Positions 6,181 through 64,000 of a stretch of DNA of 64,000 nt are shown here, piece by piece. The stretch lies in sequence record NC_135728.1; one strand, written 5' to 3'. The first letter of the stretch is position 1, and every line of letters starts with the position of its first letter. The DNA comes from a phage. Below the pieces are notes generated by a model. It saw only the letters and a program-made list of their open reading frames with translations. It made no database searches and was not told the DNA's origin. Made by a program: the position numbers and the translations under genes.

Positions 6181-7463
6181 TGCATCAAATCAAAACAACA
6201 CTGTACGCACTGAACAAAGATGGCAGCTACCAACAGTGGAAAGTATTCACTGATGGCGAAAAGGTTATCGTAGAGTTTGGCAAGCTTGACGGTAAATTGC
6301 AGTACAAAGAGACGGTATGCACACCTAAGAACGTAGGTCGTGCCAACGAGACTACAGCTGAGCAACAGGCCGAGCTTGAGGCTATCAGCAAGTGGGAAAA
6401 ACAAGTCCGCCTGGGGTATGTTGAAAACATGGAAGATTGCGAGCAGGGTGTTGATCTTTTACCCATGCTGGTGCATGACTACCTGAAGCGTGGCAAGGCA
6501 CTTAAATTACCTTGCTGGATCTTGCGTAAGTTAGATGGTCTTCGTCTGCTTGTTGTTTTCCAAAATGGTGAGCCTAAATTTATTTCCCGTGGTAATAAGT
6601 CCTACCCTATTCAAGGAAAGCTTTTAGAGCAACTTCGTTCTTTCCATTCTACCACTAGGATTAAACAACTTGATGGGGAACTATACATTCATGGTCTTCC
6701 TTTGCAGAAAATAGTGTCTCTTGCTAAACGGTGGCGCACACAGGAAGAGATTCAGGCCGAGATCGATAAAGACTATGAGGCAGATAAAAAACGCCGTCAT
6801 GCAGCAATTAAGGCAGGCTTATCAACATACAAAAACTTCAACAAGGTAGATATTCCTGTCGATGTTGAGCCTGTTCGTGATGATTTGCGTTACGGCGGGT
6901 ACTGTAGCTACGATCTGGAGTATCACATTTTTGATATTCCTAGCGACAAGGTGTGGTGGGATCCAGAAACAGAGTCTGGGCGCTGCAAGGATCTTATGGA
7001 TGCAGAGGATACCGTTACCACTCTGATGCTTGATCATATCAAGGTTGTTGACGCAGAGCTTGCGTACACAGTTGATCATTGCGAAGAATCTGTTGGTATA
7101 TTCATGTCCGAAGGATATGAAGGTACTATCATGCGTAATTTCTGCGGTAAATATGAGTATGGTCAGCGAACATCTGAAGCATTGAAATGGAAAAAGTTCA
7201 ACGACGCAGAGGTGAAAGTTATTGACGTTGAGAAAGATAAGAATGATGAAGGTGTTCTTATCTGTGTTGACAAGGAAGGTGTTGTTGTTAAAATGAAGAT
7301 GAAAGGCACGCACGAGGAGCGTAGCTATGACAGGATGCAGGAAATGATCGGCAAGTTTGTCACCTTCAAATACCAAGCAAGGACAGAAGACAACAACTAC
7401 CAATTCCCTGTCGGTATCTGCGTCCGAAATGTTAACCCAGACACTTGGGAGGTGCTTGAATGA
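6180..7463 (+). CDS. ATP-dependent DNA ligase
   Basis: Motif I RKLDGLR (KxDGxR), motif III-like QLDGELYIHG, EGYEGTIMR. Confidence 0.8.
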   Translation: MHQIKTTLYALNKDGSYQQWKVFTDGEKVIVEFGKLDGKLQYKETVCTPKNVGRANETTAEQQAELEAISKWEKQVRLGYVENMEDCEQGVDLLPMLVHDYLKRGKALKLPCWILRKLDGLRLLVVFQNGEPKFISRGNKSYPIQGKLLEQLRSFHSTTRIKQLDGELYIHGLPLQKIVSLAKRWRTQEEIQAEIDKDYEADKKRRHAAIKAGLSTYKNFNKVDIPVDVEPVRDDLRYGGYCSYDLEYHIFDIPSDKVWWDPETESGRCKDLMDAEDTVTTLMLDHIKVVDAELAYTVDHCEESVGIFMSEGYEGTIMRNFCGKYEYGQRTSEALKWKKFNDAEVKVIDVEKDKNDEGVLICVDKEGVVVKMKMKGTHEERSYDRMQEMIGKFVTFKYQARTEDNNYQFPVGICVRNVNPDTWEVLE

Positions 7464-7586
7464 TGTAGGAAGGTTCAGCAGGTAACGGTAGCCAATTGAA
7501 TGATGGTTTTCAATCGGCACCTACATAACCACACTGTGTAGTGTTGTTGATTGTGTTAGTTATGAGTAAACTGGAGAGTATGAAAA

Positions 7587-8057
7587 ATGAAACTTGATAA
7601 AAATGTTCAACGAAAAGCTTTCTTGGATATGATCGCATATTCGGAAGGCACAGATAATGGTAGGCAACCCACTAAGGATCGGGGATACGATGTCATAGTT
7701 GGTGGCAAGCTGTTTAGCGATTACAGCAAGCATCCAGGTGTGTACGTTAAGCTAAATGCTAAACTTACCTCCTCCGCTGCTGGTCGTTACCAGGTTTTGG
7801 AGAAGTTTGCTAAACACTACATGGAACAGTTAGGATTGCCAGATTTTGGCCCTGCCAGTCAGGACAAGATTGCGTTGCAACTGATCCGTGAGTGCAAGGC
7901 TCTCGCCGACATTGACGAAGGGCGTATCCACGAGGCTATCCATAAATGCCGTTCCCGCTGGGCTTCGTTACCTGGTGCTGGATATGGTCAGCATGAACAG
8001 AAGATCGAGAAGTTGATCGAGGTGTTTAAAAAGGCAGGCGGTGTTGTCCTTGATTGA
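7587..8057 (+). CDS. endolysin, lambda R-type lytic transglycosylase
   Basis: Near-colinear with lambda R: QRKAFLDMIAYSEGTDNGRQ, GYDVIVGG, RYQVL, WASLPGAGYGQ. Confidence 0.9.
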   Translation: MKLDKNVQRKAFLDMIAYSEGTDNGRQPTKDRGYDVIVGGKLFSDYSKHPGVYVKLNAKLTSSAAGRYQVLEKFAKHYMEQLGLPDFGPASQDKIALQLIRECKALADIDEGRIHEAIHKCRSRWASLPGAGYGQHEQKIEKLIEVFKKAGGVVLD

Positions 8058-40865: not shown

Positions 40866-41425
40866 TCAGCCAGAAATATCTGAACAGCCAGTTATACCAC
40901 GATTTTGTGCTTGTCCTACAGGAGTGCTTCCCTGTCAGGAGCCGGTAGCGACTGGAGTGCTGCCAGGCGGACGAAATGGGAATACTTCTCATTCTTATAA
41001 CAATTCTCAAATATCGAGGCAGTGAGGCAAATTAATAGGTGAGGCCGTTCACACAGTGGCACAACATTTGCAACCTATCTTGTGGGATTGAATGAGAATA
41101 CCTATCATTGTGAGAACTGTTATCATTACGGGCAATTTAACATAATACCCATTATGCGCACCACTGGCGATACATACAGGGATTTATAACATGAGTTACT
41201 GTTTACGTATATAACAATTATATTTCTTACTATTTGTGTGGGATATAGTTAGCAGCCGATAGATTAGATATTGACCTGCAGACTTCCAACCGTCTAGACG
41301 TCTAAACGCCCACACAACAAGGTTTATACATACATTACTGAATGTAAACAGGGCCGCAAAAATGCTACCATACAAGATTGTAAATTTTTCATGCAGCACT
41401 TGACAAAGAGGAGAAAAACTTGTCT

Positions 41426-41505
41426 GACACTTTAGACACAATAGTGACATAATATGACACCTTTGACACACTGGACACATTAAACATAATTGACATGCCT
41501 GACTG
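41426..41505. repeat. iteron-like array of GACA(C/T) repeats phased every 9-11 bp
   Basis: Eight copies: GACAC, GACACA, GACAT, GACAC, GACACA, GACACA, GACAT, GACT. Confidence 0.6.
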
Positions 41506-43405: not shown

Positions 43406-43678
43406 TTACTTACGGCGGCAGAATTCAAGCGTTTTTAATTGATAATCTTCCTCAGCCTGGAGTACAACCGCCTCGATCATTTCGTTGGCATTGTTGAAGC
43501 CATACCCTTTAGCGAACTCGTCCGCACCACCTTCGTGATCATGTTCTGCGTTCATCGCTTCCACAAAATGGAATTCCAAATTGTTGAGGTAGGGGCTTGA
43601 TGTGCCGTCTTCTTTTTCGATGAGATCCCAAATAGCATTAAAACGTGATTCGACTTCTTGATTAATCCAGCTTGACAT
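43406..43678 (-). CDS. hypothetical acidic protein
   Basis: AGAGGAAAACAC before ATG. Confidence 0.5.
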   Translation of the reverse strand: MSSWINQEVESRFNAIWDLIEKEDGTSSPYLNNLEFHFVEAMNAEHDHEGGADEFAKGYGFNNANEMIEAVVLQAEEDYQLKTLEFCRRK

Positions 43679-43896
43679 AGTGTTTTCCTCTCTTCTGGTT
43701 GTTGTGTGGGCACCTTTGCCCCTTCAAGATAAATGTTACCCCACCCCCTGGCAGATGTCAACGGTTTTTATAGTTCTTATATGACAGGCAGGCCTGGTGA
43801 TTGTCTCCCCCTGTTCCCAAGTGCCGCCCGTTTAATAAGAATAGCAAAAGGGGCCGAACAAGTCAACCCCAAAATCAGTACCAAAACACTTTTTAT

Positions 43897-52549: not shown

Positions 52550-52613
52550 GATTTTATCCTCTTAGTGTCTTTTGTGCTTTTAGTGTATTTGGTGTCGTAC
52601 TATATGTCAATAC

Positions 52614-52811
52614 TTATTTTTTATTAAACCAGTGGTTGATCTGGCCTTTTGTCAGGGCGCAACGATTAAGCTGTTGCCGGGTATAGCTCTGACCACGACG
52701 GAATTTATAAAGGCCTTGCCCGTTGTTGATGGTTACATCCACCCGGCAAATCACTTGATCCGTGACCACCTGGCGAGTGTTGCGACGTACTTTGATTCCG
52801 TAGGCGTTCAT
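52614..52811 (-). CDS. hypothetical protein
   Basis: AAAGAGGATAAAAAATC leader. Confidence 0.5.
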   Translation of the reverse strand: MNAYGIKVRRNTRQVVTDQVICRVDVTINNGQGLYKFRRGQSYTRQQLNRCALTKGQINHWFNKK

Positions 52812-52899
52812 GATTTTTTATCCTCTTTGTTAATTAGTGCGGTGTTGTTCACCTTGCGATAATAAGAATAACAAGAACTGCCCGAGCTGTCAACCATTA

Positions 52900-53860
52900 T
52901 GTAAAATTATTTTTTGGGTAGAATTCTCCAGCCGCCACCCCTGCCAGGTTTGCAAGCTTTCACTCTCCCACCTGGTCAGTTAGGTCCTGCTAGGGCTGGC
53001 CCCGCCAGGTTGCAGCAGTTGACGCACTATGTTAGAAAAATTTTTTGAAAAGTGTTGACAACGGCCCCACCAGGTGGCACAATATACATATCGAAAGGAC
53101 GGCAGGCACCGGTGACGGGGGAGACAACCACCGGGGATGGGCGCTGCATAAAATGAGAACGGTTATCATTATCATTTAAAAATTTATGCAAAAAGTCCTT
53201 GCTTTCTTTGTCCTGTGTGATACTATAATAACAAGCCGGGGCAGCAGGGGCCGGGAGACAATCACCGGGCCTGCCCGTTATTCTGCAAACGAGAATGATT
53301 ATCATTCAAAATTCTAAATGAGAACTCCTCGCATTTAATAAATTTAATTAGCATGCTAATTACCATCCGTAACAATTTCCTATAAAACAGTATCCACTAA
53401 AATATTCCCATATAGAAATTTTAAAAATCCATTTCTGAAAACGAAAAATCGATTTCGTCCCCAAAAATTTCAGGTCGAGAGCCGGAACGATTTCCAGAAA
53501 ATCCGATTCAGAAAACGAAAAACAGATCGAGTACTGAGAAATTTATCGAGAAAAATTTTCAGAAAATTCAATCTTTGAAATGAAAAACAGATCGAGTACC
53601 TGGAAAGCTGCACCGCAACTTCAAGATAGTGGTTAGATTGTTACCATAGAAGGTCAAGGGTAAGTGGAGGGAGTTATAGTAGAAGGATGTGAGTATGTGC
53701 AGGAAATCTGTAATGGTGGTCTGGAATATGGTGCAAACGATAGGATGGGTGATTCAGCTTGTCGCGCCCACTCTGAAAAAATCCATTTTAGTTTTCGATC
53801 CATTTTCTGATTTTCTAAGGATTTTAAAATATCCAGCCCGGTGAAATATCAAAAGGAGGA
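52900..53860. repeat. about 1 kb ORF-poor region with several direct-repeat families
   Basis: CC..CCAGGT-type motifs; two related 80-nt units containing GGGAGACAA(C/T)CACCGGG and GAGAA(C/T)G(G/A)TTATCATT; three GAAAACGAAAAACAGATCGAGTAC-type repeats about 70 bp apart; AAATCCATTTTAG repeats. Confidence 0.55.
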
Positions 53861-53882
53861 AATCCATTTTAGAAATCCTCCT
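53846..53882 (-). terminator. probable rho-independent terminator
   Basis: On minus strand GGAGGA-loop-TCCTCC followed by TTTTGATATTTC, just past gene 53913-54242. Confidence 0.45.
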
Positions 53883-53912
53883 TACACTTGATATGCCAGG
53901 AATTTTCAAGTA

Positions 53913-54242
53913 TCAGCTGTCTTTGTTTTTAGGTTTGTACATGCGCAGAGGTATGGTCTTTGTAACATTCCATTTCCTCAACCCTTCCCAGCTCCAGTTG
54001 TGGGCGTGATACCCGGTTATGCATGCACTGCTGGCGTGATCATAGGCATAAGAGAACGCTATGCGTAACAGGTGGGGCCAGTCTCTCCACGGCTGTGGTC
54101 CGTAAGCCTTTCTCCAACACCGACATAAACTAAATGTCTCAAGAATAGGCAGGATAACAAATCCATACACCACCACCAAGATGATCAGCGCAATGATTGT
54201 CAGGAATACATACCCTGCAGTTGAAATGATGATCTCTGTCAT
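53913..54242 (-). CDS. membrane protein
   Basis: N-terminal TM IISTAGYVFLTIIALIILVVVYGFVILPIL; ATGA-coupled. Confidence 0.5.
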   Translation of the reverse strand: MTEIIISTAGYVFLTIIALIILVVVYGFVILPILETFSLCRCWRKAYGPQPWRDWPHLLRIAFSYAYDHASSACITGYHAHNWSWEGLRKWNVTKTIPLRMYKPKNKDS

Positions 54243-62207: not shown

Positions 62208-62483
62208 CAATAGTTCAGGTAGGTCGTTAAGCTACCCCGCACCATTACGTGCATAGCCATACGTTTTCACGTAGGATCGGACCATCTCATATTCCTATGA
62301 TAAGCAACCACAGGAATCCTCCCATTTCGACCGCACTTGCTGGTCTACTTCCTTTCGGAATGGCCTCTGAGCGTTCGCTCTTTTGAGCGCTTCGTTGCGG
62401 ATTACCTTGCCATAAGGTTTAGGCTTCCCGCAGTTAAAGAGGTTATTCGACATAGATTACTCTATGAAGCCACAATGTTATTT
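62208..62483 (-). ncRNA. putative group I self-splicing intron (276 nt) in the DNA polymerase gene
   Basis: Interrupts the ORF between the H and D codons of motif C; exon ends in U, intron ends in G; GUGG guide 11 nt into intron can pair with exon CCAU; P-like CUGCGGGAAG, Q-like AAUCCGCAAC, P7 strands GACCA / UGGUC. Confidence 0.65.
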
Positions 62484-64000
62484 ATGGTAATAAATAATAC
62501 GACGAACACCTTCATCGTACCACCCACGCTTCACCATTTGGTGGTGCATGAGTATCCCAACTAAGTCACACAGCGATGCACCACCATTTTGTTGGTATGC
62601 ATTAAGTAAAGAGTGTTTAGATCTGGTCCAGATAGCATGACCATCGAAAGAGTAGATAAACTTCTTACCTGTTGCTTCCCAGAATTTCTCCAGATCCTCT
62701 TTGCGCCCCTTAAGACCGGGGTTGGCATCCCAAAGTGCATCTATTACCCTTTGCCCCAACTCTGGAGAGATGTCCAACATATCTGCAACTTTATCTTTTT
62801 GTGCCCCGTACATAACACCATACGTGATAGGTTTACCGTCGTTACGGGACACCTCTCTGCCTGCTACTTTTGTATATGCCTCGGCATTGTTTTGGTGTGC
62901 GTCTCCGTTACTTACAACATCATAATACAGGCCGTTGTCGAACTCAAAGGCACCCCAAGCCCCGATAAGCTGCTCTAAGTTGGACCCGTCAATACCGATC
63001 TGAAAGTATCCGGGAGGAACACCCCATAGACTACGCATCTCTTTACCCATAACCACTTTAGGAGATGGTTTAGGCATGTTTGCACAAATACTGTGTTTCT
63101 GTCTGGAAGTGTTTGTTAGCCCAGAACTTTTAGCAGGAAGCTTATGGTCAATCTTCAAACGTGGGTGATTAAGAAGACCAGTATCAACCTTATCCTCCTT
63201 GATTGGGTCAAGGACCGATCTGCGGTTTCGCAATGATAACCACAAGACGATATCTTTAGCCATCTCTCCGTTCAATTTTTCAAGATTCGGACACAGGTGT
63301 CCAAACGTATCTTTCAGTTGCGGAGAAGTAATAAGTGCCCTGGCTTTTCTACGTATTTTCCCGAACACTTCCTTTTTAATCCTTTCGGAGTTAGGAAAGC
63401 TTCGGAACTTGTGCACGGTTGTCTGGAACTTAGCATCAGTTTTGTTCCAGAAGTTGATAATTAGGTCACAATACTCTGACTCTAAAAGCTCGTCCATATA
63501 AGCATATACTCGTGCATCAACATCTGCATCAGGTAGAGCTTTCTTCTTGCTGTCTTTAGTTACATCCTTAGTTCTCCACATTGTCGGGAGCCAGCCAGCG
63601 CTGATCAGATACCGCTTAATGTCGTCCTGATTGCTGATTTTCATAGGTATCTTGCAGTCCGGCATTCGCTTCTGCTGTAGATCACTTATTGCCTGATCCA
63701 TCAGCTCTTTAGGCAAAGGGTGTGGTGTGGAAGTTCCCTTAATATAGCCTCTCAAGAAATCAGCCATCTTATCGGGGTCTTTGCAGCCCATCTCTTCACA
63801 CCATTTTATCCCCATCTTGCTGACATCCCCTGTAGAGGTAAATGCTCTCTTAGGCGGGGCTTTGAACTCTAAAGCGCTCATGTCTACAGGATAGCCAAGC
63901 TTATCTTTTAACCATTTCCAACCATTATTAGAGATTGTCCCGTCTTGGTTAAACGGCTTTTCAGGGAACTTGGGCCGCTGAGACATTGACAGCTCTTTTA
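62484..64000 (-). CDS. DNA polymerase family A, exon 1 (partial; N-terminus may lie beyond the window)
   Basis: Motif B-like KPITYGVMYGAQ; ends ...VRRIIYYH (cf. Pol I RMIMQVH-DE); reading frame stays open upstream of the track start at 63986. Confidence 0.8.

Follow-up and report, generated by a model that had tools for sequence, protein, structure and literature searches.

Bacterial Fur operators (GATAATGATAATCATTATC, in the 9-1-9 form AATGAgAATcATTctCATT) stand in front of iron-uptake and fur genes, and overlapping and tandem boxes are common in their natural clusters. The prophage cargo gene stx1 is said to have such a box as well. Among phage loci of other kinds, the primary origin of T7 consists of the tandem promoters 1.1A and 1.1B followed by an AT-rich stretch, and boxB of the lambda and P22 nut sites, like the put sites of HK022, is a promoter-proximal RNA element that acts in cis. 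Fur boxes have been described on sitABCD of lambdoid prophages (PMC6969025), and a preprint on the left terminal repeat of phage T5 describes DnaA boxes there and makes no mention of Fur (Davison, bioRxiv 10.1101/866236). Here we consider positions 52812-53912 of a 64,000-nucleotide stretch of phage DNA (sequence record NC_135728.1; the whole stretch is called the window below), which comes from a strictly lytic, rV5-like phage of E. coli in the genus Vequintavirus. The region sits within a long block of small leftward early genes, and is best read as a cis-acting, non-coding control region of that block. Its most informative feature, overlooked in an earlier, sequence-only reading of the window, is a box, GAGAAYGRTTATCATT, that has the appearance of a near-consensus Fur operator. 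Our more specific proposal, to which we give a probability of about 0.4, is that the region is a Fur-gated, non-coding transcription module running counter to the neighbouring genes, which feeds a protein-binding repeat array and possibly an origin of replication.

The sequence-only reading had listed four repeat families in the region, all of which were recovered in place by repeat search and by reading of the sequence. What it had called two related 80-nt units are a tandem duplication of one module, and thus true paralogues, in each of which a + strand sigma-70 promoter of its own is followed by a GC-rich element of about 55 nt and a near-consensus Fur box. The copies share AAAYGAGAAYGRTTATCATT, at 53151-53183 and 53287-53319 (136 bp apart), and their common box reads AATGAGAAC-G-GTTATCATT and AACGAGAAT-G-ATTATCATT. 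Judged against AATGAKAATNATTMTCATT, the published Fur box consensus used for 19-mer matching, box 1 (53152-53176) comprises two overlapping 19-mers offset by 6 bp (AATGAGAACGGTTATCATT and AACGGTTATCATTATCATT) with two and three mismatches, and box 2 (AACGAGAATGATTATCATT; 53288-53306) has a single mismatch to the 19-bp consensus. A degenerate box at 53317-53335 starts exactly 29 bp after box 2, at the place to which the second box of phage GAP31 aligns. Five Fur-type 19-mers with at most three mismatches occur in the window against 0.29 expected, all of them in DNA free of open reading frames (ORFs): three in this region, and two at 40975-40993 and 41091-41109. The boxes match bacterial operators at 16-19 of 19 positions in the same palindromic 9-1-9 layout, and, as in natural Fur site clusters, overlapping and tandem boxes are both found. 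Bacterial operators differ in fronting iron-uptake or fur genes, whereas these boxes lie in a lytic phage and control no recognisable gene.

By its sequence, the shared box is an operator of the FUR family. A text search of the literature returned TGAGAATGATTCTCA as the Fur box of Enterococcus faecalis iron transporters, AATGAgAATcATTctCATT as the Xanthomonas Fur consensus and GAgAATGATTATCA as the Fur box of Listeria fhuC. When one bacterial genome per species was scanned for the exact 21-mer box, it was found in 68 stretches from Proteobacteria, Cyanobacteria, Firmicutes and other groups. Ten ORFs starting beside the 21-mer were sampled, eight of which encode iron-uptake or FUR-family proteins: a TonB-dependent receptor, a FecCD permease, two siderophore-type binding proteins (Peripla_BP_2), a solute-binding protein and three FUR-family regulators. 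The remaining two encode a CobW-family metal chaperone, which brings the metal-related total to 9/10, and a protein without a match. Since the cyanobacterial genes beside the 21-mer look zinc-related, we describe the box as belonging to the FUR family and not strictly to Fur. The closest copy in E. coli matches at 22 of 23 positions and lies in the intergenic region between yhhY and yhhX, both of which we take to be genes of the Fur regulon.

A megablast search with 52612-54242 returned 121 phage records, of which 112 cover at least 80% of the query at about 84-99.9% identity; nearly all of these are Vequintavirus (rV5-like) coliphages. Within the genus, 53040-53600 is near-invariant in the alignment, and conservation in related phages, named in the sequence-only reading as a point on which it could fail, proved stronger than that of the flanking genes. 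Outside the genus, a sensitive blastn search with the whole region detects only 53251-53347, which runs from the unit 2 core through the second box. Its matches, at 75-88% identity, come from Seunavirus, Certrevirus, Mydovirus, Henunavirus, Phapecoctavirus and Justusliebigvirus, so that matches to the module span other genera of the Vequintavirinae and also the Stephanstirmvirinae. The aligned genera have one order in common: an A/T-rich TTTGTAAAG repeat, CTTG, a variable spacer, TGnTAYTAT, a start near ACAT, the GC-rich element with GAGACAAWCACCG, then TGCCCGYYATTCTGC and a Fur-type box. In local BLAST comparisons of GAP31 or CR8 with the window, the element, the boxes and the long repeats described below are collinear. 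A metagenome scan and a second pattern scan of IMG/VR gave mainly chance matches and few new homologues. The view that this DNA is not a spacer holds, and its description as a multi-site regulatory locus gains support from paralogous units that each have their own promoter.

In the relatives the box reads AATGAGAATGATTATCATT or AATGAGAATGATTCTCATT, and AATGATAATGATTATCATT in phage 4MG, with 0-2 mismatches to the 19-bp consensus compared with 1-3 for the boxes of the window. Their arrays hold one to five boxes, mostly at 29 bp from start to start, as from box 2 to the degenerate box here, and this fixed period is a further difference from bacterial operators. Hena1 and GE_vB_MG have one box, Seunavirus and Mydovirus two, Justusliebigvirus FKP3 three at 34 bp, Certrevirus three and one more at +38, Phapecoctavirus four, and one metagenomic phage about five at irregular spacing.

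The box is by no means confined to these genera. IMG/VR holds the exact 20-mer box in more than 120 contigs, and boxes of this kind on phage promoters appear to be common, given that 37 of the 132 exact boxes are found 0-19 nt past a sigma-70 -10 hexamer; 22 of those 37 follow promoters that match the consensus at 10-12 of 12 positions and lie 9-13 nt past the -10, the classical operator position. At L014, L015, L037, L051, L092, L096, L120 and other loci, a perfect or near-perfect TTGACA-17/18-TATAAT is followed 9-13 nt later by the box, often via CGGCGCC, and such loci of uncultivated phages look like Fur-repressed phage promoters. At L049, L101 and L033 the box adjoins clusters of TTATCCACA DnaA boxes. 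T5-like genomes have several copies of the Fur-type 20-mer in the untranslated repeat regions of their left terminal repeat (L053 6100-7400, corresponding to DT57C/DT571-2 positions 6700-8000, and other contigs); one copy adjoins a GC hairpin and AATTCTC, and others are arrayed as AAATGAGAATCATTCCACTTCTT repeats. The T5 left terminal repeat is like the region in having the same 20-mer box, which there stands beside a GC hairpin and then AATTCTC, but it has paired DnaA boxes and is associated with two-step DNA injection (bioRxiv 10.1101/866236), whereas the region lacks DnaA boxes and its homology to T5 is limited to the box. The boxes on prophage cargo share with those of the region the use of the host iron regulator by a phage genome; they belong, however, to the own promoter of a temperate cargo operon, and not to a conserved non-coding early region of a virulent phage. 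Fur boxes are already known as bacterial operators and on prophage cargo, and what appears to be new is the presence of Fur-type boxes in a control region of lytic phages. In open-access papers and preprints we found no account of Fur operators in the conserved non-coding DNA of T5-like phages or of the Vequintavirinae or Stephanstirmvirinae, and nothing specific on the cassette of promoter, element and box, on small RNAs of Vequintavirus or on the origin of rV5.

Promoter P1 (53055-53083, + strand; TTGACA-17-CACAAT with TG, an extended -10) scored 10/12 in the promoter scan and is kept in the aligned Vequintavirus relatives, the divergent contig IMG156 (L156) having a different TTGACA promoter in its place. 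Promoter P2 (53199-53226, + strand; TTGCTT-16-TACTAT, with TGa before the -10) was found by reading the sequence, its 8/12 being below the scan threshold. It is the orthologue of a promoter that is conserved across all sampled genera and is identical in IMG156; the CTTG and TGnTAYTAT columns of this promoter type are conserved across nine sequences, and its distance to the element is fixed in genera sampled from both subfamilies. P1 and P2 are both oriented against all the surrounding leftward genes, and + strand promoters occur in series in GAP31, ESCO5 and CR8 as well. An additional + strand promoter lies 5' of the module in GAP31, ESCO5 and relatives (L007 1280-1410; L010 1280-1400); it drives a conserved element of about 100 nt (AGAAGAGRAARCGCCACCCCACGGCGWAAAGGCGGGGCTAAC...GGAAGGTKGATCGCCGGTAG) and is preceded by the small + strand ORF GAP31_044; local BLAST detected no homologue of this upstream 'RNA A' element in the window, and the ORF was likewise undetectable there.

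Copy 1 of the GC-rich element (53090-53148, + strand; repeat family D3) has its core, GAGACAACCACCG, at 53121-53133, and copy 2 (53230-53286, + strand) has GAGACAATCACCG at 53255-53267. The element core GAGACAAYCACCG is invariant, GGGAGACAAYCACCGGG recurs at 53119-53135 and 53253-53269, and the 13-mer core GAGACAANCACCG, allowing one mismatch, occurs three times in the window against 0.23 expected. A covariance model (R1) built from 23 sequences recovered from the window exactly the two units and a third paralogue, and nothing else: copy 2, which is also the copy recovered by BLAST in distant genera and collinear in local BLAST, scored 65.7 bits; copy 1 gave a partial match at 53111-53136 (fold -20.1 kcal/mol, z = -2.3); and the third paralogue, a promoter (TTGACT-17-TATTCT, with TG) with a GC-rich element at 43776-43866 on the - strand, scored 55.3 bits. 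This 43.8-kb copy lacks a Fur box and runs in the same direction as the genes; behind it come a second promoter (rV5 P168) and a gene that starts at 43677, and the copy is conserved in Phapecoctavirus, Justusliebigvirus and Certrevirus. Because a Fur box trails a paralogous copy of the 43.8-kb type by about 45 nt in CR9 and SSBI34, the association of element and box recurs.

Whether the element works as an RNA was approached through its folding. In folds of single sequences, AUAGCGGG pairs with CCCGCUAU in a 5' closing helix, and the invariant loop is exposed on an inner CCGG/CCGG stem; the sense strand folds better than the antisense strand, and z-scores range from -1.0 to -2.3. The closing helix is paired in 81% of cells compared with 31-55% in slid controls; two of its pairs show AU/GC/GU exchange, and its many G-U pairs are workable on the + strand only. 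In a second, terminator-like helix, CAUUCUG pairs with the left half of the box, and 84% of cells are paired there compared with 32-63% in controls; this AU-rich helix of 8-9 bp with its U-rich tail is flagged in ESCO5, unflagged in the window, and absent from unit 1 and from the 43.8-kb copy. Both helices use one common strand and are thus mutually exclusive. RNAalifold found no consensus hairpin in the MAFFT alignment, Rfam at gathering and E-value thresholds gave nothing credible for the element, and in a covariance-model alignment of 31 distinct sequences covariation was not above that of shuffles (183/500); the covariance analysis that the sequence-only reading had proposed for the 80-nt units therefore yields no significant covariation for a fold. 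Signs of an RNA structure are suggestive without reaching significance, and the element could work at the level of either RNA or DNA. Its likeness to nut and put sites lies in a short stem-loop with an invariant loop right after early promoters, in several copies per genome. It differs from them in that its + strand copies in the region have no downstream genes or terminators, its loop is of 10-17 nt and not a pentaloop, and its fold is statistically unsupported. A leaderless peptide starting from ACATGG of the element was considered and rejected by eye, as several genera have ATA in place of the ATG and the frame is interrupted by indels, and CsrA-type GGA loops and mimicry of the anti-Shine-Dalgarno sequence were set aside as not conserved, also by eye.

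Beyond the duplicated module lie three repeats of about 57 nt (53411-53606, + strand; repeat family D1), each with an A/T tract, AAAATCCNATT, GAAAACGAAAAAC and AGATCGAGTAC. They occupy 53411-53467, 53485-53541 and 53550-53606, at spacings of 74 and 65 bp, and are near-invariant in Vequintavirus; the 18-mer GAAAAACAGATCGAGTAC of the long repeat has two exact copies in the window against 0.07 expected. Exactly three units are present in each of the five Vequintavirinae genera compared, with spacings of 67/76 in GAP31, 63/78 in CR8, 69/76 in Hena1, 67/74 in Mydo and 74/65 in the window. In every unit an A5-6T6 tract is combined with a GAAAAAATACGAT-like part and a terminal core, which, depending on the genus, is GATCGAGAACC, GATCGAGACCC, AGATCGAGTAC or CTCAAGTCCCC; Phapecoctavirus has a different repeat set at the same place. 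Fixed number and phasing together with a co-varying core are what would be expected of the sites of a lineage-specific protein. The motifs of the long repeats were found nowhere else in the window, and the repeats are therefore not a dispersed promoter class. The judgement that the region is not CRISPR-like also holds, since its repeats are imperfect 57-nt units with interspaces that are themselves partly repeated, and not identical short repeats with constant unique spacers; a tandem repeat finder reported two trivial arrays only. In a conserved block at 53773-53830, part of the repeat unit recurs in inverted orientation (inverted repeats I7, I15 and I16) together with AAATCCATTTT motifs; the motif occurs six times against 1.25 expected, and the block is conserved even in IMG156. 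The sequence AAATCCATTT(T/C) is found at 53424, 53778 and 53859.

With the primary origin of T7 the region has in common two tandem promoters that lead into AT-rich DNA in an early region, and rV5 encodes a T7-type primase-helicase and a family A polymerase (PMC3606486). Unlike those of T7, its promoters are of the host sigma-70 type and directed against the genes, and the Fur boxes and long phased repeats have no T7 counterpart.

The sequence features, their duplication and conservation, and the identity of the box with Fur operators are observed, whereas Fur binding, gating of transcription and the role of the repeat array are inferred, as follows. Host RNA polymerase would start at the tandem promoters P1 and P2, against the leftward genes, and each transcript would open with the GC-rich element of about 55 nt and reach the Fur operator or operators about 55-85 nt past its start. 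Iron-loaded Fur on the boxes would act as a gate or roadblock, such that only short structured RNAs are made when iron is present; at low iron, transcription would continue into the AT-rich array of three phased repeats of about 70 bp. The array may serve as a platform for a protein, probably phage-encoded, and may be a replication origin, in which case read-through would activate it in a manner comparable to the primary origin of T7.

A number of observations weigh against this proposal. The window boxes are at +55 to +85 from the P1 and P2 starts and not over the -35 and -10 hexamers as in classical Fur repression, and the roadblock role is therefore conjecture. They also sit 17-40 bp upstream of the next promoter-like site, and a weak - strand TTGAAT-18-CAGAAT (8/12, unflagged by the scan) lies over box 2. 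The G conserved at position 6 (GAGAAT versus GATAAT) deviates from the E. coli consensus. Unit 2 of IMG156 lacks a Fur box, as does the 43.8-kb copy, so element and box are separable. Downstream of P1 and P2 the + strand is without genes and without a canonical terminator. As for an origin role, 52812-53912 contains no DnaA boxes, no IHF consensus and no enrichment of GATC, and GC skew does not change at the region and follows transcription only (window analysis; PMC3606486); a DnaA-dependent origin was rejected on these grounds, the skew itself being uninformative. Lastly, the ORF-free DNA of 2.5 kb at 40.0-42.5 kb of the window, at the convergence of rightward and leftward transcription, is an equally good candidate for an origin, or may be a packaging site. 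This is a different region from 52812-53912, and it is the one that corresponds to the 'non-coding' box of rV5, the 2.6-kb gap between ORF163 and ORF164 (PMC3606486). It contains four ACCTGAAGAG repeats at about 40347, 40738, 40773 and 40857, about eight GACAY repeats with a period of 9-11 bp at about 41420-41500, and two copies of the 20-mer GCCATGCCATTCGTTTGCAT at about 41540 and 41833.

The same arguments bear on the alternative that the region is itself a replication origin or a packaging-recognition site, with the repeats as iterons, the promoters serving transcriptional activation only and the Fur boxes incidental or architectural. Direct repeats do lie beside AT-rich DNA that could unwind, as is typical of iterons: there are three of them, each with an A/T tract, their number and spacing are kept in five Vequintavirinae genera while their cores vary by genus as those of iterons do, and two tandem promoters adjoin. 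The conservation is extreme for non-coding DNA, and the replication proteins of rV5 noted above would suit such an origin. However, besides the missing DnaA and IHF sites, GATC enrichment and skew change, the neighbours are small hypothetical genes with no initiator or terminase gene among them, the unit spacing of 63-78 bp is unlike that of known iteron arrays (about 20 bp), and the 40.0-42.5-kb region with its GACAY repeats is a rival site, which leaves this alternative rather unlikely in our estimation. We also regard as unlikely, if a shade less so, that the units are genes for trans-acting small RNAs to which the Fur-box likeness is secondary. The RNA would be of about 85 nt, with a 5' stem-loop exposing the invariant GAGACAAYCACC loop, a weak terminator formed by CAUUCUG and the box, and a U-rich tail, and would target host or phage RNAs or sequester a protein. 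Each copy does have its own promoter at a fixed distance, the three paralogues keep a constant orientation relative to the promoter and not to the genome, both helices pair above slid controls, and the better-folding strand is the sense strand. The sequence-only suggestion of paralogous small RNA genes is supported in part: promoters and a conserved transcribed element are present, a canonical terminator and an Rfam match are lacking, and covariation is not significant. Against it count also the lack of an RNAalifold hairpin, the modest z-scores, the lack of a G+C-rich terminator, the absence of the terminator-like helix from unit 1 and the 43.8-kb copy, the fact that the two helices cannot coexist, and a search of the window for antisense targets of the invariant loop, in which no complementary site rose above chance.

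Multicopy Fur boxes derepress the Fur regulon, which is the basis of the Fur titration assay, and the boxes might accordingly be imagined as a decoy without a role in phage transcription: as phage DNA replicates, its four to five strong boxes per genome would soak up Fur and so release host iron uptake from repression, for instance to the benefit of the phage's iron-dependent ribonucleotide reductase. Near-consensus boxes at two separate ORF-free loci, arrays of up to five boxes in relatives and the same boxes in the untranslated repeat regions of T5-like phages would fit such a function. Yet Fur is abundant, at thousands of molecules per cell, the boxes per genome are few and some genera have only one, and a decoy requires no set position, while the first box stands at an exact distance from the promoter-element module and the 29-bp spacing is held across genera; we consider a decoy improbable. 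A reading of the region as ordinary coding DNA, made up of the small genes annotated in rV5, Murica, FFH2 and WalterGehring, seems to us barely credible. The sequence-only reading saw no convincing ORF, which needs qualification: - strand ORFs of 92, 47 and 51 aa exist in the region (the longest at 53027-53305) and are annotated in several records (rV5 ORF197-199, Murica gp179-180, FFH2, WalterGehring and others). The 92-aa ORF, however, covers both copies of the duplicated module and has no equivalent in other genera, as in Seunavirus GAP31, its frame is rearranged and not kept in the divergent relative IMG156, no ribosome-binding site is annotated for it in Murica although one is given for most of its neighbours, and its 'NDNDN' stretch is the Fur box translated in frame; annotators, moreover, disagree on which ORFs are present, on which strand and over what extent. 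As the ORF spans the duplication, its frame is not kept and annotators disagree, we treat the region as non-coding. Several of these alternatives are compatible with a Fur-gated module.

On a wider scale, virulent phages of several unrelated lineages may embed host Fur operators in conserved early non-coding control regions, by which they would gate lytic development by iron, at the level of early transcription, origin firing or both, or reprogram the Fur regulon of the host. The lineages would be the rV5-like Vequintavirinae, the phAPEC8/phi92-like Stephanstirmvirinae, T5-like phages and many uncultivated phages, and the module would be a new type of regulatory cassette; we hold this generalization to be possible, though we would sooner bet against it. 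If Fur binds, these phages, which have a broad host range, would tie their early transcription or their replication to the iron status of the host. As rV5-like phages are widely used in therapy and biocontrol cocktails, and the gut and infected tissue are iron-limited, such coupling, if true, would bear on efficacy in vivo. The boxes also open a new approach to the repeat regions of phage T5, which have long lacked an explanation, two candidate sites are indicated for the replication origin of rV5-like phages, and several annotations as 'hypothetical proteins' are corrected across more than 100 Vequintavirus records.

The two ends of the region belong to adjacent genes, the left end being the promoter of the next gene together with a deletion scar and the right end the terminator of the upstream leftward gene. 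The left-hand promoter, for gene 52614-52811, is a sigma-70 promoter on the - strand at 52865-52893 (TTGACA-17-TATTCT, TG before the -10; 10/12 in the scan) that is invariant in Vequintavirus relatives. Next to it, at 52930-53015, are GC-rich repeats that contain CCWGG (GCCCCNCCAGGTT; repeat families D7 and D12), with CCCYGCCAGGTT at 52939-52950 and 53000-53011, an inverted copy at 52968-52980 and a fourth in the P1 spacer at about 53063-53077; CCWGG is enriched about threefold. The CCAGGT motifs here are copies of a GC-rich sequence that also occupies the spacers of P1 and of other promoters of rV5-like phages. Most relatives have 177 extra nt here, with a 59-aa - strand ORF (L002 3286-3462), that are missing from the window and from Murica; alignment and the FFH2 sequence place the deletion junction at 52949/52950, between two CCAGGTT repeats. 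We suspect that the CCWGG repeats are a relic of promoter spacers or a scar of recombination. At the other end, the Rho-independent terminator of gene 53913-54242 (AAGGAGGA/TCCTCCTT; 53853-53883, - strand), recognised in the sequence by its T-run on that strand and already noted in the sequence-only reading, has a stem (53853-53860/53876-53883) with compensatory changes in YP6, slur12 and IMG156.

Between these landmarks, a 16-nt palindrome, AATTAGCATGCTAATT, was found by reading the AT-rich DNA at 53346-53361; it is conserved, and the single change in IMG156 would give a G-U pair on the + strand. The purine-rich variable spacer at 53607-53770 shows the lowest conservation of the whole region in the alignment of Vequintavirus sequences. 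Some GenBank records under MG0656xx, labelled 'Campylobacter phage A147/A135/...', share 94-99.9% identity with rV5-like phages of E. coli across this region, and others match phAPEC8-like phages; these host labels look doubtful. The window has no tRNA or tmRNA genes, and Rfam searches gave noise only for the region and four related loci; the one credible Rfam match in the window lies elsewhere, a group I catalytic intron at 62258-62493 on the - strand (RF00028, 64.7 bits, E = 4e-14).

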